A DNA stretch of 64,000 nt, from NCBI GenBank assembly GCA_017436955.1, contig JAFSCD010000012.1:51993-115992 (forward strand), written 5' to 3'. Below, piece after piece: positions 32,825-49,898 of this stretch. The position numbers and the translations under genes were made by a program. Under the pieces are notes generated by a model. It saw only the letters and a program-made list of their open reading frames with translations, ran no database searches and was not told the DNA's origin. Position 1 is the first letter of the stretch. Every line of letters starts with the position of its first letter. The DNA comes from Oscillospiraceae bacterium. GTDB taxonomy: Bacteria > Bacillota > Clostridia > Oscillospirales > Oscillospiraceae.

Positions 32825-33610
32825 ATGAAGCTTATTGACATCCACACCCATATTTATCCCACCGCCATCGCCCCAAAGGCGGCTGCCAGCATCCGGGATT
32901 TTTATCAGCTGGACACCCGGGAGATGGACGGCACAGCCCAGACCCTGCTGGAGCTGGGCACCAGGGCCGGCGTTGACCGGTTTGTGGTACTGCCGGTGGC
33001 GATGCGTCCCGACAGGACCCGGCATATCAATGATTTTATTCTGGAGCAGGTGGCTGCGCAGCCCCGGTTTATCGGCTTCGGTACCGTCCACGCCGGCATG
33101 GAGAATATCGCTGCCGAGGCGGAATATGTGATGGCGCAGGGCTTGCGCGGCATCAAAATGCACCCGGATTTCCAAACCTTCGGTATCGACGATCCCCGGC
33201 TGTTCCCGATGTACGAGGCCGTGTCCGGCAGGATCCCGGTGATGCTCCACATGGGCGACAAGCGGTATGATTATTCCCATCCTGCGCGGCTGAAGCATCT
33301 TCTGGAGCTGTTTCCGCGGCTGCAGGTCATCGCTGCCCATTTTGGCGGCTACAGCATGTACGAAACCGCCTTTGAATTGCTGAAAGATACGAATTGCGTG
33401 TTCGACGTGTCCAGCTCGCTGATGTTTATGGACGACGGCGTTGCGGAAAGGTATATCCGTGCCTTCGGCGCGGAGCGGATGGCATTCGGCACGGATTATC
33501 CGCTGTGGGATCCCGTGGTGGAGACCAACCGTTTCCTGCAACTAAAGTTGACCGACGCCGAGTTCGACCAGATCGGCCACAAGACAGCAGAACGAATTTT
33601 GCATTTATAA
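32825..33610 (+). CDS. Amidohydrolase_2 family metal-dependent hydrolase
   Basis: IDIHTHIY, GIKMHPDFQ, LHMGD, AHFGG, FGTDYP. Confidence 0.88.
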   Translation: MKLIDIHTHIYPTAIAPKAAASIRDFYQLDTREMDGTAQTLLELGTRAGVDRFVVLPVAMRPDRTRHINDFILEQVAAQPRFIGFGTVHAGMENIAAEAEYVMAQGLRGIKMHPDFQTFGIDDPRLFPMYEAVSGRIPVMLHMGDKRYDYSHPARLKHLLELFPRLQVIAAHFGGYSMYETAFELLKDTNCVFDVSSSLMFMDDGVAERYIRAFGAERMAFGTDYPLWDPVVETNRFLQLKLTDAEFDQIGHKTAERILHL

Positions 33611-33612
33611 AT

Positions 33613-33713
33613 GTAGGGGCGACCATCGGTCGTCCGTGTTTGCGGCGGGAGTAAACCCCCGCCCTACAATCGGCCATCGATGGTTGCTGTAGGGCGGGGC
33701 CTTGGTCCCGCCG
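33613..33713. repeat. Cluster of three GTAG-type REPs in alternating orientation (BIME-like)
   Basis: GTAGGGGCGACCATCGGTCGTCCG (33613-33636); CGGCGGGAGTAAACCCCCGCCCTAC (33643-33667); GTAGGGCGGGGCCTTGGTCCCGCCG (33689-33713). Confidence 0.8.
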
Positions 33714-33744: not shown

Positions 33745-33776
33745 AAAAGCTCCTACCAAACGGTAGGAGCTTTTTG
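33745..33776. terminator. Bidirectional terminator
   Basis: AAAAGCTCCTACC-AAAC-GGTAGGAGCTTTTT between convergent genes. Confidence 0.85.
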
Positions 33777-33785
33777 TTTTGCAAA

Positions 33786-34817
33786 TTAGCCGTAGATCAG
33801 GGACTCGGCGTAACGGGTGGCGATGACGCCCTCGGGCTCGCCGGTAGCCTTGGATTCGGACAGAATGTGCTCGATGGAACCGTAGATGTTGTCCACCTTT
33901 GCCAGAACGGCGTCCTTGTTGTAAGGACCGTCAACCTCTGCCGCGGCATTGATAACGCCGCCGCCGTTGATGACGAAGTCAGGAGCGTAGAAGATGCCAC
34001 GAGCCTTCAGTGCCAGACCGGATGCATCGTCCAGGATCTGGTTGTTTGCGCCGCCGGCAACAGCCTTGCACTTCAGCTGCGGAATGGTGGTGGGATTCAG
34101 GATCGCGCCCATGGCGTTGGGGGAGAAAATGTCGCACTCCTGGGAGTAGATGGCCTCGGTGGGGACGATGGTTGCACCGAATTCGGCAACAGCTCTTGCG
34201 GCAGCTTCCTGATTGCTGCGGTTGGCGATGATCAGCTTGGCGCCGGACTCGTGCAGCAGACGGCACAGATCGTAGCCGACCTTACCCAGACCCTGCACAG
34301 CGATGGTCAGACCTTCCAGATCGTCACGACCCAGAGCCACCTTGGCGGTAGCGCGGATGCCCTGCCATACACCGCGGGCGGTGAAGGGAGAGGGGTCGCC
34401 GCTGTTCTGGGGCAGACCGCAGATGTGGTTGGTCTTGCGCAGCATGATCAGCGCATCGTCGCAGGTGGTGTTCACGTCCTCGGCGGTGATATAGTCGCCG
34501 CCCAGGTTGTTGACAGCTTCACCGAAGGCCTCGAACATAGCCTCGGTCTTTGCAGAGGGATCGGCGATGATAACGCCCTTGCCGCCGCCGTGGGGCAGAC
34601 CGGCAACTGCGTTCTTGTGGGACATACCGCGGCTCAGGCGCAGAACGTCAAACAGCGCGTCGTCGTAGGATGCGTAGGGGAACAGACGGCAGCCGCCGAT
34701 GGCAGGACCCAGATTGGTGTTGTGCACGGCGATGATGGCCTTCAGACCGGCCTTCTCGTTGTTGATGAACAGAACTTTCTCGTGGCGGTATTTGCTCATT
34801 TCGGTCATTGCATTCAT
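33786..34817 (-). CDS. Leu/Val/Phe dehydrogenase (ELFV family)
   Basis: IAVHNTNLGPAIGGCR, LSRGMSHK, GGGKGVI, TAEDV, QGLGKVG, GANNQ, PDFVINGGG. Confidence 0.92.
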   Translation of the reverse strand: MNAMTEMSKYRHEKVLFINNEKAGLKAIIAVHNTNLGPAIGGCRLFPYASYDDALFDVLRLSRGMSHKNAVAGLPHGGGKGVIIADPSAKTEAMFEAFGEAVNNLGGDYITAEDVNTTCDDALIMLRKTNHICGLPQNSGDPSPFTARGVWQGIRATAKVALGRDDLEGLTIAVQGLGKVGYDLCRLLHESGAKLIIANRSNQEAAARAVAEFGATIVPTEAIYSQECDIFSPNAMGAILNPTTIPQLKCKAVAGGANNQILDDASGLALKARGIFYAPDFVINGGGVINAAAEVDGPYNKDAVLAKVDNIYGSIEHILSESKATGEPEGVIATRYAESLIYG

Positions 34818-34852
34818 AATAATTTTCCTCCTTAAGATGATTGGGAAATGGG

Positions 34853-35392
34853 TTACACGGTATATTCTTTGCCCAGGGTCAGCGCCTTCATATTCAGCTC
34901 GACCAGGGCGGCTTTGGTGGGAGGCACCAGCTTTTCCACCACGGTAGCCGTACCCTCAAAGGACAGCTCGGGGTGATTCTGCAGCAGGTGACCCATAATG
35001 ATCATATTGGCCAGAGTGGGGATGTGCTGCTCTCTTGCCATAGCGGTTGCAGGAATGTAGAACACCTGCACGTCGGTGCGTGCCACCTGCACGCCGATCA
35101 GGGAAGAATCTACATAAACTTGTCCGCCGGGAACAACGGTATCCACATATTTCTGCAGAGAAGGCAGATTCATCGCCACCAGCACGTCGGGGCTGGTCAC
35201 GATGGGAGAGCCTACCGGCTGCTCGGAAATGATGACGTTGCAGTTGGCGGTGCCGCCGCGCATTTCCGGACCGTAGGAAGGCAGCCAGGATACCTGCAGC
35301 TCTTCCAAAAGACCCTTGTAAGCCAGGAATTTACCGGCAAACAGAATGCCCTGTCCGCCGAAGCCGGCAATCAGAATTTGCGTCGTTTTCAT
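34853..35392 (-). CDS. 2-oxoacid:ferredoxin oxidoreductase gamma subunit (Vor-type)
   Basis: [26 protein letters not shown]. Confidence 0.93.
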
Positions 35393-36147
35393 TTGGCATC
35401 CTCCTTTGCAGCGGAGCGATCCTTATAAACGCCGATGGGGTAGTAGGGAAGCATATCGCTTTCCACCCATTCCAGCGCCTTCTGGGGAGTCATACCCCAG
35501 TTGGTGGGGCAGGCGGAAACCACTTCCACCAAGCTGAAGCCTTTGCCCTCGATCTGGTTCTGGAAGGCCTTTTTGATGGCTTTTTTGGCAGCGTTTACAT
35601 TTTTGACGTTGTTGACAGCCACACGTGCCAGATACTCGGGACCCTCCAGAGTGGACAGCATTTCGCATACCTTGATGGGCCAGCCGCAATGGTTTACATC
35701 GCGACCGTAGGGGCTGGTCTGGGTGACCTGACCGGGCAGGCTGGTGGGAGCCATCTGACCGCCGGTCATACCGTAAATGGCGTTGTTGACGAAAATTACG
35801 GTGATATTTTCATTTCTCGCGGCTGCGTGGACAGTTTCTGCCATGCCGATGGAAGCCAGGTCGCCGTCACCCTGATAGGTGAAGACCACATTCTCCGGAC
35901 GGCAGCGCTTGATGCCGGTGGCAACAGCGGGTGCGCGACCGTGAGCCGCTTCGATCATATCGCAGGCGAAATAGTCATACGCCATAACGGCGCAGCCTAC
36001 GGGAGCAACACCGATGGTCTTGCCTTCGATGCCCAGTTCGTCCATGACCTCGGCAACCAGCCGGTGGATGATGCCATGGGGACAGCCGGGACAGTAATGG
36101 AAGGGGAGGTCCGTCAGGGACTTGGGTTTTTGAAAAACAACTGCCAT
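35389..36147 (-). CDS. 2-oxoacid:ferredoxin oxidoreductase beta (TPP-binding) subunit (Vor-type)
   Basis: [18 protein letters not shown]...NN TPP motif, YGMTGGQ, CPTNW. Confidence 0.94.
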
Positions 36148-36149
36148 GA

Positions 36150-37211
36150 TCAGAACACTCCTTTCTCGGCGTTACGGATGCTTTCCAGCACCTCGTCGGG
36201 GCTGGGGATCATACCGCCGCAGCGGTTGCACAGCGCTACGGGGCGCTTACATTCGGTTGCCAGGCGCACATCCTCGATCATCTGACCCATACTCAGCTCT
36301 ACACTGACGAAGCCCTTGACCTGATCGGCAGCCTTATTCAGCACAGCCTTGGGGAAGGGCCACAAAGTGATGGGACGGATCAGACCTACCTTGATGCCCT
36401 CCTGCCGTGCGGCAACGATGGCATTCTTGGCGACACGGGAAGCGATACCGAAGGCGACGACGCAGATATCTGCATCCTCCATCATATATTCTTCCCACAT
36501 TGCCTCGGTCTGTTCAATGTGCTTATAGCGCTCGTAGCGCTGGAAATTGGTAACCTCCAGAGCCTCGGGCTTTAAGTACAAGGAATTGACGACGTTGTGC
36601 TTGCGCTCGCCGTTGGTGCCGGTCAGCGCCCAGGGCTTTTCGTAGGTTTCGATCTCGGCATCCTCGAAAGAGATGGGCTCCATCATCTGACCGATGGTGC
36701 CGTCTGCCAGGATCATAGCGGTCATCCGGTATTTGTCTGCCAGATTAAAGCCCTTGATGGTCAGGCTAGCCATTTCCTGCACGGAGGCGGGTGCCAGCAC
36801 GATCATCCGGTAGTCGCCGTGACCGCCGCCCTTGGTAGCCTGGAAATAATCGGACTGGGAGGGTTGAATACCGCCCAAGCCGGGACCGCCGCGCTGGACA
36901 TTGACCACCAGCGCCGGTACGTCAGAGCCGGCAATATAGCTTAAGCCCTCTGCCTTCAGGGAGATTCCGGGGCTGGAGGAGGAGGTCATAACACGCATAC
37001 CGGCAGCGGCAGCGCCGTAGACCATATTGATGGAAGCGATCTCGCTTTCTGCCTGCAGGAAAACGCCGCCAATCTTGGGCATTTTCTTTGCCATATAGGC
37101 AGCAATTTCTGTTTGGGGGGTGATGGGGTAGCCGAAGTAATGGCGGCAGCCGGCACGGATGGCGGCTTCAGCGATGGCTTCGTTGCCCTTCATAAGAATT
37201 CTCTGCGCCAT
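36150..37211 (-). CDS. 2-oxoisovalerate-type 2-oxoacid:ferredoxin oxidoreductase alpha subunit
   Basis: [48 protein letters not shown]. Confidence 0.92.
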
Positions 37212-37221
37212 ATAAGCCTCC

Positions 37222-37428
37222 TTATTTCTCAACGGTGATGATGCAGTCCGGGCACATAGTGGCACAGAATGCACAACCGATGCATTTTTCCATATCGGTC
37301 ATAACTGCAGGGGAGTAGCCCTTGCTGTTGATCTGGTCCTCGGCGATCACCAGAAGCTTTTTGGGACAGGCGGATACGCACAGGCCGCAGCCTTTGCAAA
37401 GATCCGTATTGAATGTAACTTTTGCCAT
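37222..37428 (-). CDS. 2[4Fe-4S] ferredoxin / OFOR delta subunit
   Basis: CKGCGLCVSACP and CIGCAFCATMCP. Confidence 0.93.
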   Translation of the reverse strand: MAKVTFNTDLCKGCGLCVSACPKKLLVIAEDQINSKGYSPAVMTDMEKCIGCAFCATMCPDCIITVEK

Positions 37429-37463
37429 TGGGATTCCTCCTTTTTGGGTATACGACCAGCAGC

Positions 37464-38147
37464 TTACAGCTTCTGATCGGGGAGATCGAAATATTTTTCC
37501 TGCAGCTGCAGGGGGAATACATTGGGAATGTGCTTGCTGACTGCCGGGGCAAGATCGGCACGCACGGTGGTCATAAAGACGGGCAGCCCGGTCATAGTGC
37601 TTAAGCTTTCGGCATAGCCGGTGCTTTCCAGCACGGTGCTTCCGTCGGTCAGCGGACCCAAATGGGAATTGTTGACGATGTCGGTAAATTTCAGACCGCA
37701 GGCGGCTTCGATTTCCCGCATCACATCCAGCGCATCCGCCGGAGTCTGGGTCAGCGGACGGTAGCAGTTGGCTACGAAAACCATCCGGTAGTTGTTTTCC
37801 TTTTGGATAAAGGGAACGTACCGACCCAGGGCGTAGGCGCCCCGGTCATCACCGCCGATATCCATCACGCCGAAGCTGCTGCGATCCTCCACCAGCCGGT
37901 AGGCCTCTGCCGGCAGCGCAGGCAGATCTACGTTGGAGTTGGCAAACTGGGGCGCGATCAGCTCCACGCCGGCATCCTTTAGCTGCCGGGCGCTGTCCGC
38001 GGTGCGAAAATAGGGATTGACGATATCCAGATCCGCAATACAGACCTTTTTGCCCTCTTTTGCCAGGTGCAGAGCATAATTTACAGCGATATTTGTCTTG
38101 CCGCTGCCGTAATGGCCGGCAAATAAAGTAAGACGCTTGTGGTCCAT
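37464..38147 (-). CDS. P-loop NTPase (MinD/CobQ-like), function unknown
   Basis: Walker A GHYGSGKT, DLDIVNPYFR, DIGGD. Confidence 0.8.
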   Translation of the reverse strand: MDHKRLTLFAGHYGSGKTNIAVNYALHLAKEGKKVCIADLDIVNPYFRTADSARQLKDAGVELIAPQFANSNVDLPALPAEAYRLVEDRSSFGVMDIGGDDRGAYALGRYVPFIQKENNYRMVFVANCYRPLTQTPADALDVMREIEAACGLKFTDIVNNSHLGPLTDGSTVLESTGYAESLSTMTGLPVFMTTVRADLAPAVSKHIPNVFPLQLQEKYFDLPDQKL

Positions 38148-38151
38148 AAAA

Positions 38152-40437
38152 TTACAACTGCTTTCTGATAATCTTGCCGCTGACGGTTTTGGGCAGGCTT
38201 TCCTTAAATTCCACGATACGGGGGTACTTGTAAGGCGCGGTTCTGCTCTTGACGTAGTTTTGGATCTCCTTGCGCAGCTCGTCGGTGCCTTCGTAGCCCT
38301 TGATCAGCACGATGCTGGCCTTGACTACCTGACCGCGAACCTCATCCGGTGCGGCGGAAACGCCACATTCCAGAACGTAGGGTAGCTCCATAATGACGTT
38401 TTCGATCTCAAAGGGTCCGATACGGTAGCCGGAGGACTTGATCACATCGTCCACACGACCCACGTACCAGAAGAAACCGTCCTCATCCTTCCACGCCAGA
38501 TCGCCGGTGTGGTAGAAGCCGTCACGCCAGGTCTCCGCGGTGATCTCCTCGTTGCCCTCGTAGCAATAGGCAAGACCGCAGGGCAGACCCTGGGAAATAT
38601 CAATGCAGATCTCGCCGGTCTCGCCGGATTCCACCTCGGCGCCTTCGGCGTCCAGCAGCTTTACGTTGTACAGCGGAACGGGCTTGCCCATAGCGCCGAA
38701 CTTGTGGCTGTCACCGGCCAGATTGCCGATGATCAGGGTGCTTTCGGACTGACCGAAGCCTTCCATGATCTTCAGACCCGTGGAAAGCTCAAACTGACGG
38801 AACACCTCGGGATTCAGCGCTTCGCCGGCGGTGGAGGCGTGCTGGATGGAGCTCAGGTCGTACTTGCTCAGATCCTGCTTGATCAACATTCTGTACATCG
38901 TAGGCGGTGCGCAGAAGGTGGTGATGTTGTACTTTGCGAACATGGGCAGGATCTTCTCGCCGTCGAAACGGTCAAAATCATACACGAAGATGGCTGCCTC
39001 GCAAAGCCACTGACCGTAGATCTTACCCCAGGAGGACTTTGCCCAGCCGGTGTCGGAAATGGTCAGGTGCAGGCCGTCGGGGTTGACCCGGTGCCAGTAT
39101 TTGGCGGTGATAAAGTGACCCAGAGGGTACTTGTAGTTGTGGGCTGTCAGCTTGGGATAGCCAGAGGTGCCGGAGGTGAAGAACATCAGCATGGGGTCGC
39201 TGCCGCAGGGCGCATCTTCCGCTCTTGCAAAGTGGGAGCTGAAGATGGGATATTCTTCGTTAAAATCGTGCCAGCCATCCCGGCTGCCGTTTACTAAAAT
39301 CTTATGCTTCAGACCCGGGCAGGAAGCAGCGGCTGCATCCACGGCATCGGCAACGATACCGTCGGCGGTGCAAAGAATGGCGCTGACGTTACCGGCCTGG
39401 AAGCGGTAAGTAAAGTCCTTTTCCAGCAGCTGATTGGTGGCAGGGATCGCCACAGCGCCCAGCTTGTGCAGCGCCAGTACAGCAAACCAGTACTGATAGT
39501 GGCGCTTTAGCACCAGCATCACACGGTCGCCCCGCTTGATGCCCAAACTCTTGAAATAGTTGGCAACTCTTGCGGATTCCTTCTTCATATCCCGGAAGGT
39601 AAAGCGCCGCTCGGTGCCGTCCTGCGCGACGTACAGCATCGCCAGCTTATCCGGCTTGCTGCGACCCAGCGCATCCACCACATCGAAGGCAAAGTTGAAT
39701 TTGTCCTCATCGTGGAAGGCGATCTTTTGCAGCTTGCCGTTTTCCACCGTGGGGTCGATGAAATTGCGGTAGATCCGGGGCTTTTTGTCCGGCGTCAGAC
39801 CCGTACCGGGCGTTTCCACAGCGGCAGCGGCTTCGCCGTCACGGGCAGCGGAATTGCTCAGCACAAAGGCGTAGAACGTACAGTCCTCGCCGCCGACGGC
39901 GATCATACCGTGGGGCGTACCGGAATCGTAGTAAATGCTGTCACCGGGGTGGAGGATCTCGGTCTTGCTGCCGATCTGGATGCGCATGGTACCGGAGATC
40001 ACGATGTCACATTCCTGACCCTCGTGGGTAACCAGCTCAATGTCCTTGTGTTCTGCACCGTCGTGGTACTTCAGCTCCATATACAGGGGCAGACCGATAC
40101 GGTTGCGGAAATCCGCCGCCAGGTTGTAGCCCACCATATGATGGGCTTCCTCGATGCGCTGACCTTCGCCTCGCCTTGTTAATGCATAGGAGCGCAGCTT
40201 CGCGCTGCGGCCTTCCAGCAGGTCGGAAAAGTCAACGCCGAAAATCAGAACGCACCGATACAGAAAAGCGATGCTCATATTCCGTTCACCGGCTTCGCAG
40301 CTGCGGTATTCTTCTACGGAAAGATCTGTCCGGGCAGCCATTTCTTCTTCAGAAAGTCCGTGCACCAGCCGAAGTTCCCGGATTCTGGCGGCGACCTCTT
40401 TAATTTTGTAGTCTGCTCCGGTCATATTTTGTTTCAT
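38152..40437 (-). CDS. XRE-HTH + cupin + AMP-forming acyl-CoA synthetase fusion (ACS2)
   Basis: N-terminal RIRELR...HTH, HEGQE...PHGM cupin; FTSGTSGYPK, EGFGQSE, TGD, GRVDD, LPKTVSGKI. Confidence 0.9.
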   Translation of the reverse strand: MKQNMTGADYKIKEVAARIRELRLVHGLSEEEMAARTDLSVEEYRSCEAGERNMSIAFLYRCVLIFGVDFSDLLEGRSAKLRSYALTRRGEGQRIEEAHHMVGYNLAADFRNRIGLPLYMELKYHDGAEHKDIELVTHEGQECDIVISGTMRIQIGSKTEILHPGDSIYYDSGTPHGMIAVGGEDCTFYAFVLSNSAARDGEAAAAVETPGTGLTPDKKPRIYRNFIDPTVENGKLQKIAFHDEDKFNFAFDVVDALGRSKPDKLAMLYVAQDGTERRFTFRDMKKESARVANYFKSLGIKRGDRVMLVLKRHYQYWFAVLALHKLGAVAIPATNQLLEKDFTYRFQAGNVSAILCTADGIVADAVDAAAASCPGLKHKILVNGSRDGWHDFNEEYPIFSSHFARAEDAPCGSDPMLMFFTSGTSGYPKLTAHNYKYPLGHFITAKYWHRVNPDGLHLTISDTGWAKSSWGKIYGQWLCEAAIFVYDFDRFDGEKILPMFAKYNITTFCAPPTMYRMLIKQDLSKYDLSSIQHASTAGEALNPEVFRQFELSTGLKIMEGFGQSESTLIIGNLAGDSHKFGAMGKPVPLYNVKLLDAEGAEVESGETGEICIDISQGLPCGLAYCYEGNEEITAETWRDGFYHTGDLAWKDEDGFFWYVGRVDDVIKSSGYRIGPFEIENVIMELPYVLECGVSAAPDEVRGQVVKASIVLIKGYEGTDELRKEIQNYVKSRTAPYKYPRIVEFKESLPKTVSGKIIRKQL

Positions 40438-40483
40438 AGAGCACCTCGTAAAATACTTTTTGAATCAAATGCTTAACAGAAAA

Positions 40484-40512
40484 AGTGTAACATTTATAGG
40501 GGTTGTTGTCAA
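40484..40512 (-). promoter_or_regulatory. Sigma-A promoter for ACS2-NTPase-vor-dehydrogenase
   Basis: Minus strand TTGACA (40512-40507), 17 nt, TACACT with an extended TG. Confidence 0.65.
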
Positions 40513-40581
40513 GAAATGTCTGGCAGACAGTTGCACAAAAACTGCCCCATCTATGCTGCTTTTTGCCCTTGCCTGCAGGGA

Positions 40582-42849
40582 TCAAAGCTTGTTGCGCTGG
40601 ATCTTGCCGGAGATGGTCTTGGGCAGCTCATCCCGGAACACCACGATACGGGGGTACTTATAGGGAGCGGTGTGCTGCTTGACGTAGTTCTGGATCTCTT
40701 TTTTCAGCGCTTCCGTGCCTTCCACGCCGGGTACCAGCACGATACTGGCCTTAACCACCTGACCGCGCACCTCGTCGGGCGCAGCGGAAACGCCACACTC
40801 CAGCACGTAGGGCAGCTCCATAATGGTGGATTCGATCTCGAAGGGTCCGATCCGGTAGCCGGAGGACTTGATCACATCGTCAGCGCGACCCACATACCAG
40901 TAGTAGCCATCCTCGTCACGCCAGGCCACGTCGCCGGTGTGATACATACCGTCGTGCCATACGCTGTCGGTGGCTTCCTGGTTGCGGTAATAGCCCAGAA
41001 ATACGCCGCAGGTAGGCTTGGGATCGGTGCGGATGACGATCTCACCGTTGACACCGTCCTCCACGGGGTTGCCGTCGGCATCCACGATGTCGATGCCGTA
41101 GCCGGGAACGGGCTTGCCCATAGCGCCGGGCTTGATGTTGGCGCCGTAAAGATTGGCGATGCCCAGGGTCATTTCCGTCTGACCGAAGCCTTCGTGGATC
41201 CGCAGACCCGTGGCCTTTTCAAACTGGTAGAACACCTCCGGATTCAGCGCTTCGCCGGCGGTGGTGGCGTGATGGATGGAAGAAAGATCGTATTTGCTCA
41301 GATCCTGCTTGATGAGCATTCTGTACATCGTAGGCGGTGCGCAGAAGGTGGTGATGCCGTACTTGGCGAACATAGGCAGGATCTTTTCTGCATCAAAACG
41401 GTCAAAGTCATAGGTAAACACAGCACCCTCGCACAGCCACTGACCGTAGAGCTTGCCCCACAGAGCCTTGCCCCAGCCGGTCTCGGAGATGGTAAAGTGC
41501 AGACCGTCGCGCTCGCACAGATGCCAGTATTTGGCGGTGACGTAGTGACCCAGCGCGTACTTGTAGGAATGGGTAGCCATCTTGGGATAGCCGGTGGTGC
41601 CGGAGGTGAACAGCATCAGCATAGGATCGCTGCCGCAGGGCGCATCCTCGGTGCGGACGTAGCGGCGGCTGAAGAGCTTGTATTCCTCGTTATAATCGTG
41701 CCAGCCCGCACGGCTGCCGCCTACCAGGATCTTGGTCAGGGGCATATTGGCAGACCTTTCTGCCAGCTCCACCTGCTCGGCGGTGTTGCCGTCAGCGGTG
41801 CAAAGCACGGCGGACACGTCGGCAGCCTGGAAGCGGTATACAAAATCGTGCTCCATCAGCTGGTTGGTGGCGGGGATGGCGATGGCGCCCAGCTTGTGCA
41901 AACCCAAAATGGCAAACCAGAACTGATAATGGCGCTTCAGCACCAGCATGACCCGGTCACCCTTCTTGATGCCCAGAGATTTGAAATAGTTGGCGCTCTG
42001 GGAAGAAGCGTCCTTCATATCCTTAAAGGTGAAGCGGCGCTCGGTCATATCACCTGCGATATGCAGCATCGCCAGCTTTTCCGGCTCCTGACGGGCGATG
42101 GCGTCCACGGTGTCGAAAGCGAAGTTGTAGCTCTCTTCGTCGGAGAAGGTCATACCCTGGAAAATGCCGTTTTCGTCCTCCTGCGCATTGACAAACCGGT
42201 TGCACAGCAGCTTCTGCTCCCGCTTGCCGGTGTGGCTCTGACCGATGTACAGAGGCTGGTCGGTGGTGTCAGATGCCATGATCATGGAAAGGAACACACA
42301 ATCCGCGCCATCCACGGCGATCATACCGTGGGGGGTGGAGGAGCGGTAGAAAACGGAGTCGCCCTCGTGCAGGACCTCCTCGTGGTCGCCGATCCGGATG
42401 CGCATAGCGCCCTTGACCACCAGGTTAAACTCCTGACCGGCGTGGGTGGTGGTATGGATGGGCTTGTTCTGCAGTTCGGCAGAATACTGATAGGTGACCC
42501 AGTAGGGGGTAGCCAGCTTCTTGCGGAACATAGGAGCCATATCCTGAATGGTGATGCCATCCTCGCTGGCGGTTACAAGACCCTTGCCCCGGCGGGTAAC
42601 GGTATAGCCGGAAAGCTTGGCGCTCTGACCTTCCAGAAGAACGGTGATCTCCACACCGAAAACCTTGGCGCACTTGTGCAAAAATGTAAAGGGCAGATCC
42701 ACAGTGCCGGATTCATACTGGCGGTAAATGTCTTCAGACACCTCCGTTTGCTCAGCCATTTTATGTGTGCTGTAGCCCAGAATTTCTCGCATACCTCTGA
42801 TGCGCGTTGCGATATCCATAAGCTGAGTAGAGGTATTTGTGTTGGTCAT
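40582..42849 (-). CDS. XRE-HTH + cupin + AMP-forming acyl-CoA synthetase fusion (ACS1)
   Basis: RIRGMRE HTH, HAGQEF...PHGM cupin; FTSGTTGYPK, EGFGQTE, TGD, LPKTISGKI; paralogue of ACS2. Confidence 0.9.
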   Translation of the reverse strand: MTNTNTSTQLMDIATRIRGMREILGYSTHKMAEQTEVSEDIYRQYESGTVDLPFTFLHKCAKVFGVEITVLLEGQSAKLSGYTVTRRGKGLVTASEDGITIQDMAPMFRKKLATPYWVTYQYSAELQNKPIHTTTHAGQEFNLVVKGAMRIRIGDHEEVLHEGDSVFYRSSTPHGMIAVDGADCVFLSMIMASDTTDQPLYIGQSHTGKREQKLLCNRFVNAQEDENGIFQGMTFSDEESYNFAFDTVDAIARQEPEKLAMLHIAGDMTERRFTFKDMKDASSQSANYFKSLGIKKGDRVMLVLKRHYQFWFAILGLHKLGAIAIPATNQLMEHDFVYRFQAADVSAVLCTADGNTAEQVELAERSANMPLTKILVGGSRAGWHDYNEEYKLFSRRYVRTEDAPCGSDPMLMLFTSGTTGYPKMATHSYKYALGHYVTAKYWHLCERDGLHFTISETGWGKALWGKLYGQWLCEGAVFTYDFDRFDAEKILPMFAKYGITTFCAPPTMYRMLIKQDLSKYDLSSIHHATTAGEALNPEVFYQFEKATGLRIHEGFGQTEMTLGIANLYGANIKPGAMGKPVPGYGIDIVDADGNPVEDGVNGEIVIRTDPKPTCGVFLGYYRNQEATDSVWHDGMYHTGDVAWRDEDGYYWYVGRADDVIKSSGYRIGPFEIESTIMELPYVLECGVSAAPDEVRGQVVKASIVLVPGVEGTEALKKEIQNYVKQHTAPYKYPRIVVFRDELPKTISGKIQRNKL

Positions 42850-42879
42850 GGGGGATCTCCTTTCTGAAACAATAAGAAA

Positions 42880-43135
42880 TAAAAAAACGCCTCAAGAAAA
42901 CTCTTGAGACGAGAATAAACCCGCGGTACCACTCAAATTGCGGCTTGCGCCGCCACTCATCGGACTCTATCAAGTCCTATCCTTTAACGCAGGCATACGG
43001 GAGCGCTTACTGAAAAACCGTTCAGCACTCCGGCTCGGAAGGGATGGGTACTTAGATCCTGCGCTGCCGGCTCACACCAACCGCCGGCTCTCTGAAAACG
43101 ATAAGATCTGACCGTCTTCGTCAAAGCTTTTTACC
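42880..43135 (-). promoter_or_regulatory. T-box riboswitch, Ile (ATC) specifier, upstream of ACS1
   Basis: Minus strand: AGAGAG/GGTGTGA stem-I loops, c-ATC-c-CTTC-CGA (ATC at 43045-43043), T-box GAGTGGTACCGCGG (42934-42921), terminator CGTCTCAAGAG...CTTGAGGCG-T7. The specifier context matches the ileS T-box in this window. Confidence 0.85.
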
Positions 43136-43310
43136 ATTGCACATAATGTAACACAACGAAAATCAAATGTCAATATGTACGCGGCAGAAAGTCAAATGTA
43201 TTTGTGTACAAAACAAGTGGAGGTAGGTGAGGATTTTTTGTACATATTTTTCAGTGATAAATATTGACAAACCGGGCTTGTTGTGGTTAAATGACTACAT
43301 TATAATAAAA

Positions 43311-43577
43311 ATAAAGACAGTGAAGGAAAATCTGCCCTTTCGTATACTGCTCCAGAGAGCCGGCGGTTGGTGTGAGCCGGTGCAAAAGGAATTGGCAGTC
43401 TGATTCCCGAGTTGGTCTTGTGAACGCATCCGCCAGTAATGAGATCCGGGCGCTCCCGTTACAGAGCTAGGGCTTGTTGGAGCCCGATGAGGGATCCCCT
43501 TTTCGGGGGATAAGCAGGGTGGTACCGCGAATTTACCGATTCGTCCCTGAGATCAGAGGATCTCAGGGCTTTTTTAT
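43311..43577 (+). promoter_or_regulatory. T-box riboswitch, Leu (CTG) specifier
   Basis: AGAGAG/GGTGTGA loops, t-CTG-a-TTCC-CGA (CTG 43400-43402), AGGGTGGTACCGCG (43516-43529), terminator CCCTGAGATC-AGAG-GATCTCAGGG-C-T7. Confidence 0.85.
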
Positions 43578-43593
43578 TGAAGGAGGACTTACT

Positions 43594-45006
43594 ATGAGAC
43601 AGATCCGAATCAGCGATGTGACAATGAAGCAGGCGACCGGAGAGTTCAGCCTGAGCTTTAAGGAGAAGATCGAGCTATCCAAGCTGCTGGATAAGCTGGG
43701 TGTCAGCGTGATCGAGCTGGAGGGCATTACCAGCGCCCGGATCGATGCTCTGCGGATCAAGTCCATCGCCGCAGCCGTTACCGCCAGCACCGTTGCCGTG
43801 CCGGTACAGCTGGAGACGGAAAGCGTAAATCAGACCTGGAGCGCCCTGAAGGAGGCAAAGAAGCCCCGTTTGCAGGTCTGCGCACCGGTCAGCTCCGTGC
43901 AGATGGAGTATCTGTTCCATAAAAAGCCCGATGCTATGCTGAAGGCAATTTCGCAGACCGTAGCCGCCTGCCGTGGGGTTTGCGCGGATGTGGAATTTAT
44001 TGCCGACGATGCAACCCGTAGCGACGGCGCGTTCCTGAGTCAGGCAATCAGCGCTGCCGTGGAAGCCGGTGCTACCACCGTTACGCTGTGCGACGCCGCC
44101 GGCACGATGCTGCCGGATGAGTTCGCTGCCTTTGTAGCCGAGGTTTGCGCCGCCAATCCCTGCCTTGCCGGTGTGGATGTGGGCGTTTGCTGCTCCGATG
44201 GGCTGAAAATGGCAGATTCCAGCGCCGTTGCCGCCATCCGTCAGGGCGCAGCGGAGGTGAAGACCGCTGCTTATCCCGTGGGTAGCGCGTCTCTTGCCAA
44301 CGTCGCCCGGATCCTTACCGCCCGGGGTGAAAGCCTGGAGGCGGCCTGCACCGTCAGCAGCACCCAGCTGGATCGCATCACAGAGCAGATCGCCTGGATG
44401 TGCCAGACCGGTCGCAGGAAGACCTCTCCTTTTGACAATGGCGTCCGTGATGAGGATCCCGGTATGTATCTGACCGTTCACGATGATTTGGGCAGCGTTA
44501 TCAAGGTCGTGGAGCATCTGGGCTACGATCTGTCCGAGGAGGACGCCCAGAAGGTGTTTGAAGCCTTCCGCACCATCGCCGCCAAGAAGGAAAAGGTCAG
44601 CGCCAAGGAGCTGGATGCCATCGTGGCTTCCGCAGCGATGCAGGTGCCGCCTACCTATACGCTGAAAACCTACGTGATCACTGCCGGCAATACCGTTTCC
44701 GCGACAGCCCATTTGAGCCTAATCAAGGATGGTGCTGTGCTGGAGGGCGTTTGTATCGGCGACGGCCCCATTGATGCCGCGTTTCTGGCGATCGAGCAGA
44801 TCACCGGCTGCCACTATGAGCTGGATGATTTCCAGATCCAGGCGGTGACCGAGGGTCGTGAGGCTATGGGTCAGACCGTGGTGAAGCTGCGCTCCGGCGG
44901 CAAGGTATACTCCGGTCGGGGTATCTCTACGGATATCGTGGGTGCCAGCATCCATGCCTACATCAGCGCCCTGAACAAGATCGTCTATGAGGAGGAAACG
45001 GTATGA
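43594..45006 (+). CDS. LeuA (2-isopropylmalate synthase)-like protein with degenerate catalytic motifs and an intact-looking C-terminal regulatory domain
   Basis: ISDVTMKQ in place of DTTLRDGEQ; VCCSDG in place of HxHND; C-terminal GDGPIDA...AVTEGREAMG...STDIVGASIHAYISALNKI. Confidence 0.8.
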   Translation: MRQIRISDVTMKQATGEFSLSFKEKIELSKLLDKLGVSVIELEGITSARIDALRIKSIAAAVTASTVAVPVQLETESVNQTWSALKEAKKPRLQVCAPVSSVQMEYLFHKKPDAMLKAISQTVAACRGVCADVEFIADDATRSDGAFLSQAISAAVEAGATTVTLCDAAGTMLPDEFAAFVAEVCAANPCLAGVDVGVCCSDGLKMADSSAVAAIRQGAAEVKTAAYPVGSASLANVARILTARGESLEAACTVSSTQLDRITEQIAWMCQTGRRKTSPFDNGVRDEDPGMYLTVHDDLGSVIKVVEHLGYDLSEEDAQKVFEAFRTIAAKKEKVSAKELDAIVASAAMQVPPTYTLKTYVITAGNTVSATAHLSLIKDGAVLEGVCIGDGPIDAAFLAIEQITGCHYELDDFQIQAVTEGREAMGQTVVKLRSGGKVYSGRGISTDIVGASIHAYISALNKIVYEEETV

Positions 45007-47516
45007 AACTTTCCTTTTCTACCCGGGGCTGGGCAGACCTTTCCTGGGAAGAAATGATGCAGACCGCGCTGGAAATGGGCTTTTCCGGCATTGAGGTCTA
45101 CAATCTGCCGAAATTCGATCCGATGCTGGATCGGAGCGGTCCTTTTCATAAATATCAGGCAGCGGCAACGGCACGACAGCTGCGGGAAAAGAAGCTGTGC
45201 ATCCCTTGCTTTGATACCTCCTATGATCTTTCGCTGGATGATAGCTGCGTCTCTTATCTGCTTTCCCTGCTGGAGGTAGCCCACAATACCCAGGTGTCTT
45301 ATGTGGCAGCCTGCGCGCTGACTGACAATGAGGAGCAGGTGGTGCGAAATCTGCAGGCACTGCTGCCGGCTGCTGAAAAGCTGCAGGTAACGCTGCTGCT
45401 GAAAACCAGCGGCATTTACGCCGATACCGGCAGACTGCGCAATTTGCTCAATACCTTCGCCAGCGACTATATGGGCGCGCTGTGGGATGTGCATCACACC
45501 TACCGTGACTTTGGCGAAAGCGGCGATACCACCATCAAAAATCTGGGCAGCTATGTGTGCCACGTCCACCTGCGTGACTCCGATGATACCGGCGTCTATC
45601 AGGTCATCGGCGAGGGCACTATGCCCATTGACGATGTGATGCGTGCGCTGTCCTCGGTCAATTATGACGGCTTCCTCTCGCTGGAATGGAAGCCGGTGTG
45701 GCAGGAGGAGCTGCAGGACCGGGATGTGATCTTCCCGTATTATGTAAACTATATGAGTCGCTTCGGCAGCCCCAGAAGCCAGAAGAAATCCCTCTACTTT
45801 AACCACGATGGCTCCGGTCAGTATATCTGGAAAAAGGACGAGCTGATCGACCTGACCTTCTCCCAGGTGCTGGACCGTGTGGCGCAGGAATTCCCGGATC
45901 AGTACGCCTTCAAGTACACCACGCTGGACTATACCCGGACTTACCGCCAGTTCCAGAAGGATGTGGATGATTTTGCCCGTGCTCTGGTATCTATGGGCGT
46001 CAAGGCCGGCAGCAAGGTGGCCATCTGGGCGACCAATGTACCAGCCTGGTACATCACTTTCTGGGCGACTACCAAGATCGGCGCGGTGCTGGTAACGGTA
46101 AATACCGCCTATAAGATCCACGAGGCGGAGTATTTGCTGCGCCAGTCCGATACCCATACTCTGGTGATGATCGAAAACTGTCTGGATTCTGACTACCGTG
46201 GCATCATCAACGAGCTGTGTCCCGAGCTTGCCACCACCAAGCCCGGTGAGCCGCTGCACTGCAAGCGGCTGCCCTTCCTGCGGAACGTCATCACCGTTGG
46301 CTTCCGGCAGCCCGGCAGCCTGACCTTCGAGGAGGCTATGGCACGCAAGGAGCTGGTAAGCCCGGAGCAGGTGGCACGGATGGCGGCTGCCGTCCAGCCC
46401 AACGATGTGTGCAATATGCAGTACACCTCCGGCACCACGGGTTTCCCCAAAGGTGTTATGTTAACCCACTACAATGTAGTGAACAACGGCAAATGTATCG
46501 GTGACCGGATGGGTCTGTCCACCGCCGACCGTATGATGATCCAGGTGCCTATGTTCCATTGTTTCGGCATGGTATTGTCTATGACCTCGTCTATGACCCA
46601 CGGCGCTACGCTGTGTCCGCTGCCCTATTTCTCCGCGAAGTCCTCGCTGGCGTGCATCAATCAGGAGCGGATCACCTGCTTCAACGGCGTGCCGACAATG
46701 TTCATCGCCATGTTCAACCATCCCGATTACCGCAAGACGGATTTCTCCCATATGCGTACCGGTATTATGGCGGGCGCAGGCTGTCCGCCGGAGCTGATGC
46801 GCCGCGCAGCCCAGCCGGATGAGATGAATATGACCGGCATCGTCAGCGTTTACGGTCAGACGGAATCTGCCCCCGGCTCTACTATGTCCGCCTGGGACGA
46901 TCCGCTGGATGTGCGCACCAATACGGTGGGCTATGCGTTCCCCCACGTGCGCTGCAAGATCATCGACCCGGATACCGGTCTGGAAGTGCCGGACGGTGTC
47001 AACGGCGAGTTCTGCTCCCGTGGTTATAACACTATGAAGGGCTATTACAAAATGCCCCAGGCCACCAAGGATACGGTGGATGCGGAGGGCTGGCTCCACT
47101 CCGGCGACCTGGCCTGTCGGGACAGCGCAGGCAATTACCGCATTACCGGACGGCTGAAGGATATGATCATCCGCGGCGGTGAGAACATTTACCCCAAGGA
47201 GATCGAGGAATTTATCTACACCCACCCTGCGGTGCAGGATGTGCAGGTCATCGGCGTGCCGGATAAGAAGTACGGCGAGGAGATCCTGGCAAGCATTGTG
47301 CTTAAGACCCCCGGCAGCGTGAGTGTGGAGGAAATGACCGCCTATATCAAGGCCAGTATGGCACGGCACAAGGTACCCCGGTATATTGAATTTGTGGACA
47401 GCTTCCCCATGAACGCGGCAGGCAAAGTCCTCAAGTACAAGATGCGCGAGGATGCCGCCAGACGTCTGGGTCTGGTTGGCGACGGCGCAGACACCGCCGG
47501 CAACCCGGGCAAGTAA
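45003..47516 (+). CDS. Xylose-isomerase-like TIM barrel + AMP-forming acyl-CoA synthetase fusion (ACS3)
   Basis: N-terminal ~255 aa MKLSFST...GFSGIE...WDVHH...HVHLRD...LSLEW; C-terminal QYTSGTTGFPKG, YGQTE, SGD, GRLKD, GGEN, GKVLK. ATGA overlap with the upstream stop. Confidence 0.85.
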   Translation: MKLSFSTRGWADLSWEEMMQTALEMGFSGIEVYNLPKFDPMLDRSGPFHKYQAAATARQLREKKLCIPCFDTSYDLSLDDSCVSYLLSLLEVAHNTQVSYVAACALTDNEEQVVRNLQALLPAAEKLQVTLLLKTSGIYADTGRLRNLLNTFASDYMGALWDVHHTYRDFGESGDTTIKNLGSYVCHVHLRDSDDTGVYQVIGEGTMPIDDVMRALSSVNYDGFLSLEWKPVWQEELQDRDVIFPYYVNYMSRFGSPRSQKKSLYFNHDGSGQYIWKKDELIDLTFSQVLDRVAQEFPDQYAFKYTTLDYTRTYRQFQKDVDDFARALVSMGVKAGSKVAIWATNVPAWYITFWATTKIGAVLVTVNTAYKIHEAEYLLRQSDTHTLVMIENCLDSDYRGIINELCPELATTKPGEPLHCKRLPFLRNVITVGFRQPGSLTFEEAMARKELVSPEQVARMAAAVQPNDVCNMQYTSGTTGFPKGVMLTHYNVVNNGKCIGDRMGLSTADRMMIQVPMFHCFGMVLSMTSSMTHGATLCPLPYFSAKSSLACINQERITCFNGVPTMFIAMFNHPDYRKTDFSHMRTGIMAGAGCPPELMRRAAQPDEMNMTGIVSVYGQTESAPGSTMSAWDDPLDVRTNTVGYAFPHVRCKIIDPDTGLEVPDGVNGEFCSRGYNTMKGYYKMPQATKDTVDAEGWLHSGDLACRDSAGNYRITGRLKDMIIRGGENIYPKEIEEFIYTHPAVQDVQVIGVPDKKYGEEILASIVLKTPGSVSVEEMTAYIKASMARHKVPRYIEFVDSFPMNAAGKVLKYKMREDAARRLGLVGDGADTAGNPGK

Positions 47517-47560: not shown

Positions 47561-47726
47561 GCCTTCCCCCGGGGGGAAGGTGTCAAAAATCTTTGATTTT
47601 TGACGGATGAGGAATGCGGGCGGTAATCTTAAATTGAGTACAGTTTTAAGACTTCGGCGATGTTTTGCTGCACGCCGTTCCTCTCCCGTCAGCCTGCGGC
47701 TGACACCCTCTCCCCGGGAGAGGGTA
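47561..47726. repeat. Family A-related palindromic repeat
   Basis: CCTTCCCCCGGGGGGAAGG-TGTCAAAAATCTTTGATTTTTGAC-GGATGAGG ... CCTCTCCCGTCAGCCTGCGGCTGACACCCTCTCCCCGGGAGAGGGT. Confidence 0.75.
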
Positions 47727-47770
47727 TAAAAAGCCCCCTCAAAGAGGGGGCCAAGGTGTAGCTTGTTTAT

Positions 47771-48988
47771 TTATCGAATACCGTACTTTTCGATGATGTA
47801 GTCCATATCCTTATCGCCTCTGCCGGAGAGGTTGATGAGCACGCTGCCCTTACCCATCCGCTGTGCCAGCTTGATGCCGTAGGCAACGGCGTGGGCGCTT
47901 TCGATGGCGGGGATAATGCCCTCCATACGCGCCAGCTCATAGAAGGCGTCGATGGTCTCCTCGTCATTGATGACATCGTACTTGACACGACCGCAATCCC
48001 GTAAGAATGCGTGTTCAGGACCGGAGGAGGGGTAATCCAGACCGCTGGCAACGGAGTAGACCGGCGCGGGATCACCGTTTTCGTCCTTCAGCATAATGCT
48101 GTTGAAGCCGTGCATAATGCCCTCGGAGCCGTACTGCAGGCTGGCGGCGTGGTCGCCGGGTGTGGCACCGCGACCCAAAGGCTCGATGCCGTAGATCTCC
48201 ACAGGGTCATTCAGGAAGCCGGAGAAGAAGCCGGCGGCATTGGAACCACCGCCCACGCAGGCAACGATGGCATCCGGCAAATGACCGGTCATATCCACAA
48301 ACTGCGCCCGGGCTTCTTCGCCTACCACGTGCTGGAAATCCCGAACCATCATGGGGAAGGGGTGCGGACCCACCACGGAGCCGATGCAGTAGATGCAGTC
48401 CTTATATTCCTTGGCGTAGGCGGCAAACGCGGCATCCACAGCTTCTTTCAAAGTCTGCTGACCTTCGGTGACTTCTACCACGTTGGCACCCAAAATTTTC
48501 ATACGTGCCACATTGGGCGCCTGCTTTTTGATGTCCTCGGCGCCCATATAAATGTCACATTCCAGACCGAAATAGGCGGCGGCAGTAGCCATCGCCACGC
48601 CGTGCTGACCGGCGCCGGTCTCGGCGATGACCTTCTTCTTGCCCATATACTTGGCAAGCAGCACCTCGCCCATGCAGTGATTCAGCTTGTGGGCGCCGGT
48701 GTGATTCAAGTCCTCGCGCTTGACGTAAAGCTGCACGCTGCCCAGCTTGTTGGACAGCCGCTCCAGATGGGAAACCGGGGTGGGGCGACCCTGGAACTCC
48801 TTGCGAATCCGGCGCAGCTCGGCAATAAACTGCCGGGATTGGGCGATGGTAAAATAGGCCTGGGTGATCTCCTCCATAGCCTTCTGCAGCTCCGGGGCGA
48901 TATAGCAGCCGCCGTATTTGCCGAAAAAGCCGCCCTCGTCGGGGTAGTGACGGAAATAGGTCTCAAAATCCACATTGTTCAGAATCAT
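47771..48988 (-). CDS. trpB: Tryptophan synthase beta chain (stand-alone; no trpA in window)
   Basis: [12 protein letters not shown] (PLP lysine), [31 protein letters not shown]. Confidence 0.96.
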
Positions 48989-49009: not shown

Positions 49010-49272
49010 AAAAGCCCTTGACAGAATACTGTCAAGGGCGAATTTACGATCCGCGGTGCCACCTTGAATTCATAGGAAAACCTATGCGCTTGACGGGATA
49101 CCATCATATCCCCGGCAACTGACGTATGCCCGCACGTTGCAGAATACTCTGTGGAATTCACATTTCACTGCACCCTCAGCGGCCCATTTGACAACTTGTT
49201 TCCTGCCTGACTCTCAGCACCACAGACTCTCTGTATGGGCATCATTGCCTTTATCCCCGCCTCAACGGTTTA
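49010..49272 (-). promoter_or_regulatory. T-box riboswitch, Trp (TGG) specifier
   Basis: Minus strand AGAGAG/GCTGAGA loops, AAA-TGG-G (49186-49184), AAGGTGGCACCGCGG, terminator GCCCTTGACAG-TATT-CTGTCAAGGGC-T4. Promoter TTGACA (49317-49312), 17 nt, TATAAT (49294-49289). Confidence 0.9.
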
Positions 49273-49390
49273 CTATTCGGTTGGGAGTATTATAGTACAA
49301 GGACACTTGTTTGTCAAGTGATTACAAAGAGAAAAATATGGTAAAACACAGATAGGACGGATTCGCTTTTCTGCGGCGAAGATTACACCA

Positions 49391-49564
49391 AATGATATAT
49401 CGCTTGTGCGATATGATATACGGCGTTGCCGTATGATATATTTCCACTTTGTGAAAATATGAAATAATATCCGTTCCTTAATATGCCGCAGGCATATATC
49501 ATCCACCGAAGGTGGATATCATATCGAAGATATATCACCCGTTCCGCAAGGAACGGATATCATT
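49391..49564. repeat. Multi-hairpin element punctuated by TGATAT/ATATCA
   Basis: Terminal inverted repeat AATGATAT...ATATCATT; TGATATA at 49393, 49414, 49434 and TGAAATA at 49460; ATATCA at 49496, 49516, 49532, 49557; short hairpins between them. Confidence 0.8.
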
Positions 49565-49565
49565 G

Positions 49566-49598: not shown

Positions 49599-49683
49599 TG
49601 GTGGGGGAGGACGGATTCGAACCATCGAAGCGATACGCAGCAGATTTACAGTCTGTCCCCTTTGGCCACTCGGGAACTCCCCC
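49599..49683 (-). tRNA. tRNA-Tyr (GTA)
   Basis: GGGGGAGTTCCCGAGTGGCCAAAGGGGACAGACT-GTA-AATCTG...GGTTCGAATCC...CTCCCCCACCA; long variable arm; encoded CCA. Confidence 0.97.
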
Positions 49684-49822: not shown

Positions 49823-49898
49823 TGGAGCCGGTAGACGGACTCGAACCCCCGACCTACTGATTACAAATCAGTTGCTCTACCAACTGAGCTATACCGGC
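49823..49898 (-). tRNA. tRNA-Thr (TGT)
   Basis: GCCGGTATAGCTCAGTTGGTAGAGCAACTGATT-TGT-AATCAGTAGGTCGGGGGTTCGAGTCCGTCTACCGGCTCCA. Confidence 0.97.

Follow-up and report, generated by a model that had tools for sequence, protein, structure and literature searches.

A T-box-gated gene cluster that probably rebuilds isoleucine, valine and leucine from branched-chain acids in an Oscillospiraceae genome

Why would a bacterium place acyl-CoA ligases under RNA switches that sense branched-chain amino acids (BCAAs)? The question is raised by a locus of Oscillospiraceae bacterium (assembly GCA_017436955.1) at positions 33786-47516 of a 64,000-nucleotide stretch of contig JAFSCD010000012.1 (51,993 to 115,992, forward strand), hereafter the window. 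The assembly is 1.54 Mb and 82% complete, a scope that applies to every absence from this genome given below. From two divergent T-box leaders, the genes ACS1, ACS2, a nucleoside triphosphatase (NTPase), four subunits of a Vor-type 2-oxoacid:ferredoxin oxidoreductase (OFOR) and an ELFV-family dehydrogenase run leftward, and a homologue of the isopropylmalate synthase LeuA, here called LeuA*, and a third ligase, ACS3, run rightward. Open reading frames (ORFs) and profile searches gave all gene positions and families as they had been given in a sequence-only reading of this DNA. We consider it likely that the cluster rebuilds Ile, Val and Leu by the steps acid, acyl-CoA, 2-oxoacid and amino acid, and that it is switched on by uncharged tRNA. 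The proposal is built on the RNA elements, their specifiers, the protein families, residue loss in LeuA* and gene co-occurrence, all of which were observed; substrates, flux direction, induction by tRNA and the role of LeuA* are deduced from them.

T-boxes switch on under amino-acid starvation. Both leaders of the cluster exceeded the Rfam RF00230 gathering score of 93 in a covariance-model scan, with 116.6 bits for the Ile T-box (42902-43133, minus strand) and 114.8 bits for the Leu T-box (43311-43551, plus strand). In each leader an antiterminator T-box motif overlaps a downstream intrinsic terminator (42888-42911, minus; 43545-43568, plus), and a promoter-like site lies upstream of the Ile T-box (43145-43173, minus). 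The specifier codon is ATC (43045-43043) in the Ile leader and CTG (43400-43402) in the Leu leader. Folding placed the CTG in the internal loop of stem I of the Leu T-box. Free-energy folding did not recover the model structure of stem I in the Ile T-box (z 0.30), for which the specifier call rests on the Rfam alignment and the register.

That register, codon-N-4bp-NGAG, was picked after inspection of the control T-boxes of the same genome, which has 11 T-boxes altogether. All eight controls read as cognate: tyrS TAC, valS GTC, ileS ATC, pheS TTC, alaS GCC, thrS ACC, cysS TGC and trpB TGG, seven of them parsed by one specifier parser and trpB by another. The ileS and trpB genes were named by profile; tyrS, valS, pheS, alaS, thrS and cysS were presumptively named by familiar motifs. 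The 11th T-box, which precedes a ligase, reads TTC. The T-box on the ileS side (53998-53774; 89.1 bits, under the gathering score) and the Ile T-box of the cluster both show ATC-C-4bp-CGAG. The two divergent T-boxes, their Ile and Leu specifiers and the match to the ileS context had all been claimed from the letters alone, and all hold in the scan and the calibrated register. A tRNA-Leu(CAG) gene is present in the assembly; aragorn returned no match for tRNA-Ile there, which can occur when an assembly is incomplete. A 301-aa ORF whose family was not recognised lies between the ileS-side T-box and ileS (52827-53732, minus).

The specifiers were then compared over 100 loci (L042-L141), made up of 20 regions chosen from ACS1 matches and, out of 353 LeuA* matches in GTDB genomes, the 80 best. 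These loci are kin of one another, and two pairs lie on a common contig; the nearest named relatives are labelled Faecousia or Oscillospiraceae, with ruminant hindgut sites named for many. T-boxes upstream of ACS1 read ATC in 54 of 56 matches, the other two being 3'-half fragments, and those upstream of ACS2 read GTC or GTA in 28/28. For LeuA*/ACS3 the codon was CTG or CTC in 86 of 90 matches, with four fragments remaining. All six unread matches were fragments without stem I, and three specifiers were read by eye. The specifier codon is thus one that tracks ligase type across the 100 loci.

ACS1 (40582-42849, minus) and ACS2 (38152-40437, minus) are 60% identical, and each consists of N-terminal XRE-HTH and cupin domains fused to an AMP-forming acyl-CoA ligase. 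A PDB search with the XRE-cupin region gave one weak HTH match only. The closest PDB match of ACS1 is MacsMa (3etc) at 620 bits, with the runner-up at 330. According to the excerpts of the source, 2-methylbutyrate is the preferred substrate of MacsMa and its Trp259 is essential (PMC10455477). W464 of ACS1 aligns with W282 of the 3etc chain, which corresponds to Trp259 (an offset of 23, set from the YHTGD motif), and G556 aligns with the Gly that replaces a Trp of acetyl-CoA synthetase in the EGFGQ motif. The pocket Trp and the Gly are both retained in the commonest ACS2 motif variants. ACS2 also shows a conserved G460-to-A change relative to ACS1, four residues before the pocket Trp, which could narrow its pocket.

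The top NCBIfam match for both ligases is MbcS. As described in the excerpted report, the Staphylococcus aureus enzyme uses 2-methylbutyrate and isobutyrate but takes isovalerate poorly (PMC10026030), which fits a Leu branch that has a ligase family of its own. ACS1 is therefore predicted, with its Ile specifier, as the 2-methylbutyrate ligase of the Ile branch and ACS2 as the isobutyrate ligase of the Val branch. The latter assignment had been tentative in the sequence-only reading, and the Val T-boxes found at all 28 matches before ACS2 in relatives give it backing. The ACS1/ACS2 tree was built in quick mode with a midpoint root, and no order of events is drawn from it.

In the window, ACS2 has no Val T-box of its own. 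It had been cautioned that ACS2, vor and the dehydrogenase seem to have their own promoter, and this was correct: a sigma-70-type promoter-like site (TTGACA-17-TACACT with TG; 40484-40512, minus) precedes the ACS2-NTPase-vor-dehydrogenase block, with one such site seen upstream of ACS2 against 0.3 expected. No Val T-box was found behind it and no terminator between ACS1 and ACS2 in this genome. The ACS1-ACS2 spacer could be measured in 39 loci, where it was long (326 nt or more) in 25 and short in 14, and all 14 short spacers contain TTGACA, as in the window. The four closest relatives (L062-L065) retain a Val T-box before the ACS2-vor block, so that its loss here was probably recent. These observations suggest that the promoter-like site is an ancestral promoter left after the Val T-box was lost. 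Such a promoter would suit enzymes common to three branches, though amphibolic use of the block may also apply.

In the rightward operon, LeuA* (43594-45006, plus) is encoded just before ACS3 (45003-47516, plus) wherever it occurs in the loci examined. LeuA* scores 253.6 bits on TIGR00973, below the cut-off of 598.7. In 87 sequences both metal-binding His, the barrel Glu and the linker stretch that carries the catalytic His are either lost or substituted; the columns for the Asp after the RD-motif Arg, for Glu/Arg and for both linker His are gapped in 87/87. The C-terminal allosteric domain (PF08502) is present with its GxGPxD and GxSTDI motifs, which we take to be leucine-binding. Their Gly, Thr, Asp and Ile columns are invariant (87/87), the Pro is kept in 67 and the first Asp in 84. 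Mean identity to three true LeuAs is 31% in the barrel and 41% in the regulatory domain. Within the LeuA* family the regulatory domain is the better conserved (74%, against 60% for the barrel), the reverse of the three true LeuAs (45% and 68%). Measured against four relatives, the ratio of nonsynonymous to synonymous substitution (dN/dS) is about 0.02-0.07 for the regulatory domain, and for the barrel it is 0.14-0.19.

An active synthase was rejected because metal ligands and the catalytic segment are lost in 87/87 sequences, and a decaying pseudogene because dN lies far below dS in all domains. The degenerate LeuA described earlier is thus borne out, with catalytic residues lost and the regulatory domain retained. 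By this pattern of conservation LeuA* is a maintained pseudoenzyme, and most likely a leucine-binding regulatory partner or sensor for ACS3. A search of longer proteins found no LeuA* fusions, which is weak as evidence. A single-sequence fold of LeuA* reached a predicted local distance difference test score of 40.5, too low for use, and a predicted complex with the ACS3 TIM barrel (residues 1-285, without the ligase domain) scored 0.02 against a mark of 0.32, with controls not folded, a result that counts neither for nor against the pairing.

ACS3 joins an N-terminal xylose-isomerase-like TIM barrel (PF01261) to an AMP-forming ligase of another subfamily, for which the best family, NF009233, remained below its cut-off. 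It is predicted as the isovalerate ligase of the Leu branch from its Leu T-box and from the exclusion of leuB described below. Putative metal ligands of the barrel (45003-45800 in the window) are intact in the ACS3 copies that lack LeuA* (L049, L061 and L148); the LeuA*-linked copies displayed have lost at least one. A stand-alone TIM-barrel gene at two further loci (L149, L150) also has intact putative metal ligands.

The oxidoreductase is complete, with alpha, beta, gamma and delta subunits all present. The alpha subunit (36150-37211, minus; probable ATG start at 37211) scores 550 bits on the VorB profile NF005507, above the cut-off of 399. It is followed by the beta subunit with its thiamine pyrophosphate-binding domain (PF02775; 35389-36147, minus) and the gamma subunit vorG (PF01558; 34853-35392, minus), and is preceded by a ferredoxin-like delta subunit of 68 aa (37222-37428, minus), called from its two Cys-cluster motifs and kept in relatives. 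A P-loop NTPase assigned to the CbiA/ParA type by family profiles (37464-38147, minus) lies ahead of vorD in all vor operons examined, whether ligases are adjacent or not, and is likely an accessory or maturation factor of Vor. Atlas searches returned generic labels only (CbiA/ParA; sugar-phosphate-isomerase). The genome also has rnfD, which points to a possible source of reduced ferredoxin.

The last gene of the leftward operon encodes a 343-aa Leu/Val dehydrogenase-like enzyme (LeuDH; PF02812 and PF00208; 33786-34817, minus), the predicted aminating step. Its nearest solved relatives among ELFV dehydrogenases are the leucine dehydrogenases 6acf (E 1e-104) and 1leh (1e-99), and it carries two Lys motifs, presumably the active-site motifs of leucine dehydrogenase. 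An inverted repeat flanked on each side by a T-run (33745-33774) is likely a bidirectional terminator that closes the operon. LeuDH adjoins vorG in 19 of the 100 loci, an IlvE-like cluster (one representative of which was scored) lies within 2.5 kb of system genes in 13, and one locus (L129) holds both. Judged by this gene content, the aminating step is exchangeable, with LeuDH or IlvE among relatives. Sixteen loci, mostly labelled Lachnospiraceae, have LeuA*-ACS3 directly followed by a distantly related OFOR, which was about 1160-1190 aa in the five inspected and NifJ-type in the one that was scored (for example L101:13942-17427); L130 has an ORF of similar size and then IlvE. A single-chain NifJ-type OFOR is possibly the replacement for Vor in these Lachnospiraceae-type loci.

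A PF04909 amidohydrolase gene (32825-33610, plus) converges on LeuDH. Its homologues immediately follow ACS3 in L044, L045 and L046 and precede the Leu T-box in L151, and the amidohydrolase may belong to the system.

Does the cluster stand in for de novo synthesis? The sequence-only reading had asked for a check of ilvBCD and leuBCD, and ilvB, ilvC, ilvD, leuC and, above its cut-off, leuB were indeed not found in this genome, in which ilvE likewise gave no match and LeuA and LeuC had no candidates. Other matches of the aconitase and HMGL families belong to a citrate synthase-aconitase-icd operon and to a carboxylase-type subunit, names that are presumed from familiar motifs. We extended the comparison to a genus set of 130 genomes, namely 129 congeners at least 88% complete plus this one, and to 16 genomes from other families. 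In the genus set ACS3 occurs in 34 genomes and leuB in 35, with an overlap of 0 against 9.2 expected; 34 genomes have fused ACS1/2 and 26 have ilvC, again with an overlap of 0 (6.8 expected). Fisher tests on this set overstate significance because the genomes are kin. Among the 16 from other families, one genome (G038) has ilvC and ilvD, no leuB above cut-off, and ACS1 and ACS3 but no ACS2, a gene set that fits de novo synthesis of Val only. Nine congeners (G066, G069, G078, G115, G004, G126, G008, G129 and G144) have leuB and no ilvC match. G078 carries a non-fused ACS1/2 relative about 3 kb from leuB, an arrangement that suggests Leu made from an isobutyrate-derived 2-oxoacid.

Two further loci of the same genome are of a related kind. 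At C3:79795-86938 (L168), outside the window and with the design of the cluster, a Phe(TTC) T-box of 134 bits precedes an AMP-forming ligase, a Na:solute symporter, IorA, IorB and a PaaK-like ligase. This operon is likely a phenylacetate-to-phenylalanine counterpart of the BCAA cluster. Within the window, convergent with ACS3, a stand-alone trpB (47771-48988, minus; above the TIGR00263 cut-off) is preceded by a Trp(TGG) T-box (49031-49274, minus), and is likely used for indole-to-tryptophan salvage in the same lifestyle.

The genome thus has genes that would cover activation, carboxylation linked to ferredoxin, and amination, and the de novo route was not found. We propose that ACS1, ACS2 and ACS3 would activate 2-methylbutyrate, isobutyrate and isovalerate to their acyl-CoAs, with the cleavage of ATP to AMP and pyrophosphate pulling the reaction towards the thioester. 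One common Vor would add CO2 at the expense of reduced ferredoxin to yield the three branched 2-oxoacids, which LeuDH would turn into the amino acids by NADH-dependent amination with ammonia. Uncharged tRNA-Ile would switch on ACS1 and, by read-through, the remaining leftward operon, as no terminator was found between ACS1 and ACS2. Uncharged tRNA-Leu would switch on LeuA* and ACS3, and LeuA* would most likely serve ACS3 as its leucine-binding regulatory partner.

Three other explanations were weighed. OFORs and amino-acid dehydrogenases are reversible, and the ligases could be anabolic while the ACS2-NTPase-vor-LeuDH block is mainly catabolic, oxidising peptide-derived BCAAs with anabolic use secondary. 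The promoter-like site without a T-box in this genome, the TTGACA in 14 short-spacer relatives and the excerpted reports that Firmicute VORs are often catabolic (PMC13285125, PMC13290082) agree with such a block. Nevertheless, the same block is gated by a Val T-box in the four closest relatives, and an AMP-forming ligase serves poorly as an exit that yields ATP. Catabolic VORs are accompanied by phosphotransacylase and kinase or by an ADP-forming ligase, while AMP-forming ligases are argued to mark biosynthesis, in the part of PMC13285125 that is available. ORFs and profiles revealed none of the three catabolic partners (phosphotransacylase, acyl kinase, ADP-forming ligase) next to these genes, and the single acetate-kinase-family gene (PF00871) of the genome is on another contig. 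A purely catabolic cluster was rejected, and we regard the mixed version as unlikely. It is also quite improbable, in our judgement, that the T-box-gated ligases mainly feed branched acyl-CoA primers into membrane fatty acids, with BCAA starvation as a proxy and with Vor and LeuDH separate. MbcS, the best NCBIfam match of ACS1/2, is described in excerpt as supplying FabH with 2-methylbutyryl- and isobutyryl-CoA (PMC10026030), and the ligases are unlinked from vor in several genomes. However, the ligases exclude ilvC and leuB in the genus set, they are linked in most loci with an OFOR and an aminating enzyme, each ligase has its cognate specifier, and the parallel Phe T-box/Ior operon cannot prime lipids. 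We give very little credence to the idea that LeuA* and ACS3 use a different precursor or a barrel chemistry rather than simple isovalerate activation. Leu supply is what the Leu specifier and the exclusion of leuB indicate, and the alternative route that is documented is the carboxylation of isovalerate (cited in the excerpted PMC7356843). Other chemistry would account for two otherwise unexplained barrel domains, for the complete metal-type ligands of LeuA*-less ACS3 and for the amidohydrolase gene that often flanks ACS3, a ligase whose substrate has no support from a close characterised relative; but both barrels lack catalytic residues in the type found here, which makes added chemistry unlikely in this genome.

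Several observations weigh against the proposal that the cluster rebuilds all three BCAAs. The promoter-like site allows Vor and LeuDH to be transcribed without any T-box in this genome, which is 82% complete. Since the genus genomes are kin, the mutual exclusion of ligases and de novo genes may stem from a small number of events, and neither route is present in 60 of the 130 genomes. A genome of another family (G033) combines de novo genes with ligases under Ile, Val and Leu T-boxes, so that the cluster does not serve solely to replace the de novo route. ACS1 (426.7 bits) and ACS2 (415.5 bits) do not reach the cut-off of 850 of the MbcS equivalog NF047394, and the best PDB matches of ACS3 are feruloyl- and fatty acyl-CoA ligases, with no characterised close relative. 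The earlier claim of one ligase per acid stood only in part: the specifier follows the ligase type, but related ligases accept 2-methylbutyrate as well as isobutyrate, and several carriers that lack ilvC (G080, G081 and G141) show only the ACS1-type ligase, so that a strict one-to-one assignment is not general. The excerpts of PMC13290082 state that sequence alone does not fix VOR specificity, that some VOR-like enzymes favour aromatic 2-oxoacids and that a Blautia VOR is induced by BCAAs; in favour of the proposal, they show that the VOR of Clostridium sporogenes acts on each of the three branched 2-oxoacids.

The proposed chemistry and its ecological setting are those described by Allison and co-workers in 1962-1971, in which rumen bacteria and methanogens form Ile, Val and Leu by reductive carboxylation of 2-methylbutyrate, isobutyrate and isovalerate (PMC7356843, PMC2812497, PMC10658910, all in excerpt). 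That work was physiological, whereas in the present system the genes are defined and their regulation is specific to the amino acid. In 2020 a ferredoxin-oxidoreductase route from branched acids to BCAAs was considered theoretically possible but unproven in Prevotella, according to the accessible part of PMC7709123. The anabolic VOR and IOR of Methanothermobacter and the IOR with AMP-forming arylacetate-CoA ligase of Bacteroides have the same OFOR-ligase coupling, proposed to run towards amino acids, but the excerpted description (PMC13285125) is without T-box control, three specifier-matched ligases, XRE-cupin or TIM fusions, or LeuA*. The T-boxes of Firmicutes aminoacyl-tRNA synthetase and ilv-leu operons (RF00230) belong to the same RNA class, with Ile, Leu and Val specifiers and the layout of transcription attenuation; they control de novo enzymes, synthetases and transporters, while those of the cluster control acyl-CoA ligases and an OFOR.

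At the protein level, MacsMa (3ETC) and S. aureus MbcS are the closest characterised relatives of ACS1 and ACS2 and have the pocket Trp and the EGFGQ Gly in common with them. ACS1 and ACS2 differ in their N-terminal XRE-cupin fusion and in falling below the MbcS cut-off, and MbcS feeds lipid synthesis. In the oxidative Stickland metabolism of C. sporogenes and C. difficile, the catabolic VOR clusters likewise have a four-subunit VorB-family enzyme; in the excerpted accounts they sit with phosphotransacylase and kinase or an ADP-forming ligase, whereas the Vor of the cluster sits with AMP-forming ligases and starvation switches. True LeuA (TIGR00973; 3RMJ, 3EWB) has the barrel and C-terminal allosteric domain of LeuA*, in which the metal ligands and catalytic segment are lost. 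A full-text literature search returned no description of T-box-gated ligase/Vor clusters or of LeuA*; the main T-box surveys, which like most subscription papers lie outside its scope, may list such operons. The chemistry is old, and the T-box-gated gene cluster, as read from its genes, is apparently the new part.

Some features around the cluster are recorded for completeness. GC-rich palindromic repeats occupy the intergenic gaps on either side (33617-33713 and 47563-47752), and a Gut-1 RNA motif (49491-49565, minus) lies just downstream of tRNA genes at 49602-49683 and 49826-49898. In four gut metatranscriptome runs from one study (word share 0.06-0.11), the cluster is covered by contigs of many relatives, a coverage that gives neither the presence of this organism nor an expression rank.

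Isoacids are fed to livestock and are needed by many rumen and gut anaerobes. We suggest tentatively, as a view that is possible rather than probable, that a dedicated tRNA-gated system lies behind the isoacid need of gut and rumen Clostridia, in which a T-box of its own would match each of three ligases to one amino acid, LeuA*, with the reused feedback domain of an abandoned leucine pathway, would be a leucine sensor docked on the ACS3 barrel, itself stripped of its metal site, the XRE-cupin domains would act likewise on the Ile and Val ligases, and the carboxylase (Vor or NifJ-type) and aminase (LeuDH or IlvE) would be interchangeable. Knowledge of how these acids become amino acids has so far rested on labelling and on enzyme proposals for methanogens and Bacteroides, and the cluster names genes for it that can be tested. 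Its starvation-sensing switches indicate the direction of a reversible oxidoreductase, and the T-box specifiers serve as substrate labels for ligases that are not otherwise assignable. The cluster thereby offers genes that are candidates for a trait of rumen nutrition which, so far as the excerpted literature goes, is known mainly from labelling work of the 1960s. If the proposal is true, genomes scored as BCAA auxotrophs (34/130 in the genus set) would make BCAAs from the fermentation acids of their neighbours, fixing CO2 and ammonia, and metabolic models and the design of culture media for uncultured gut Clostridia would change.

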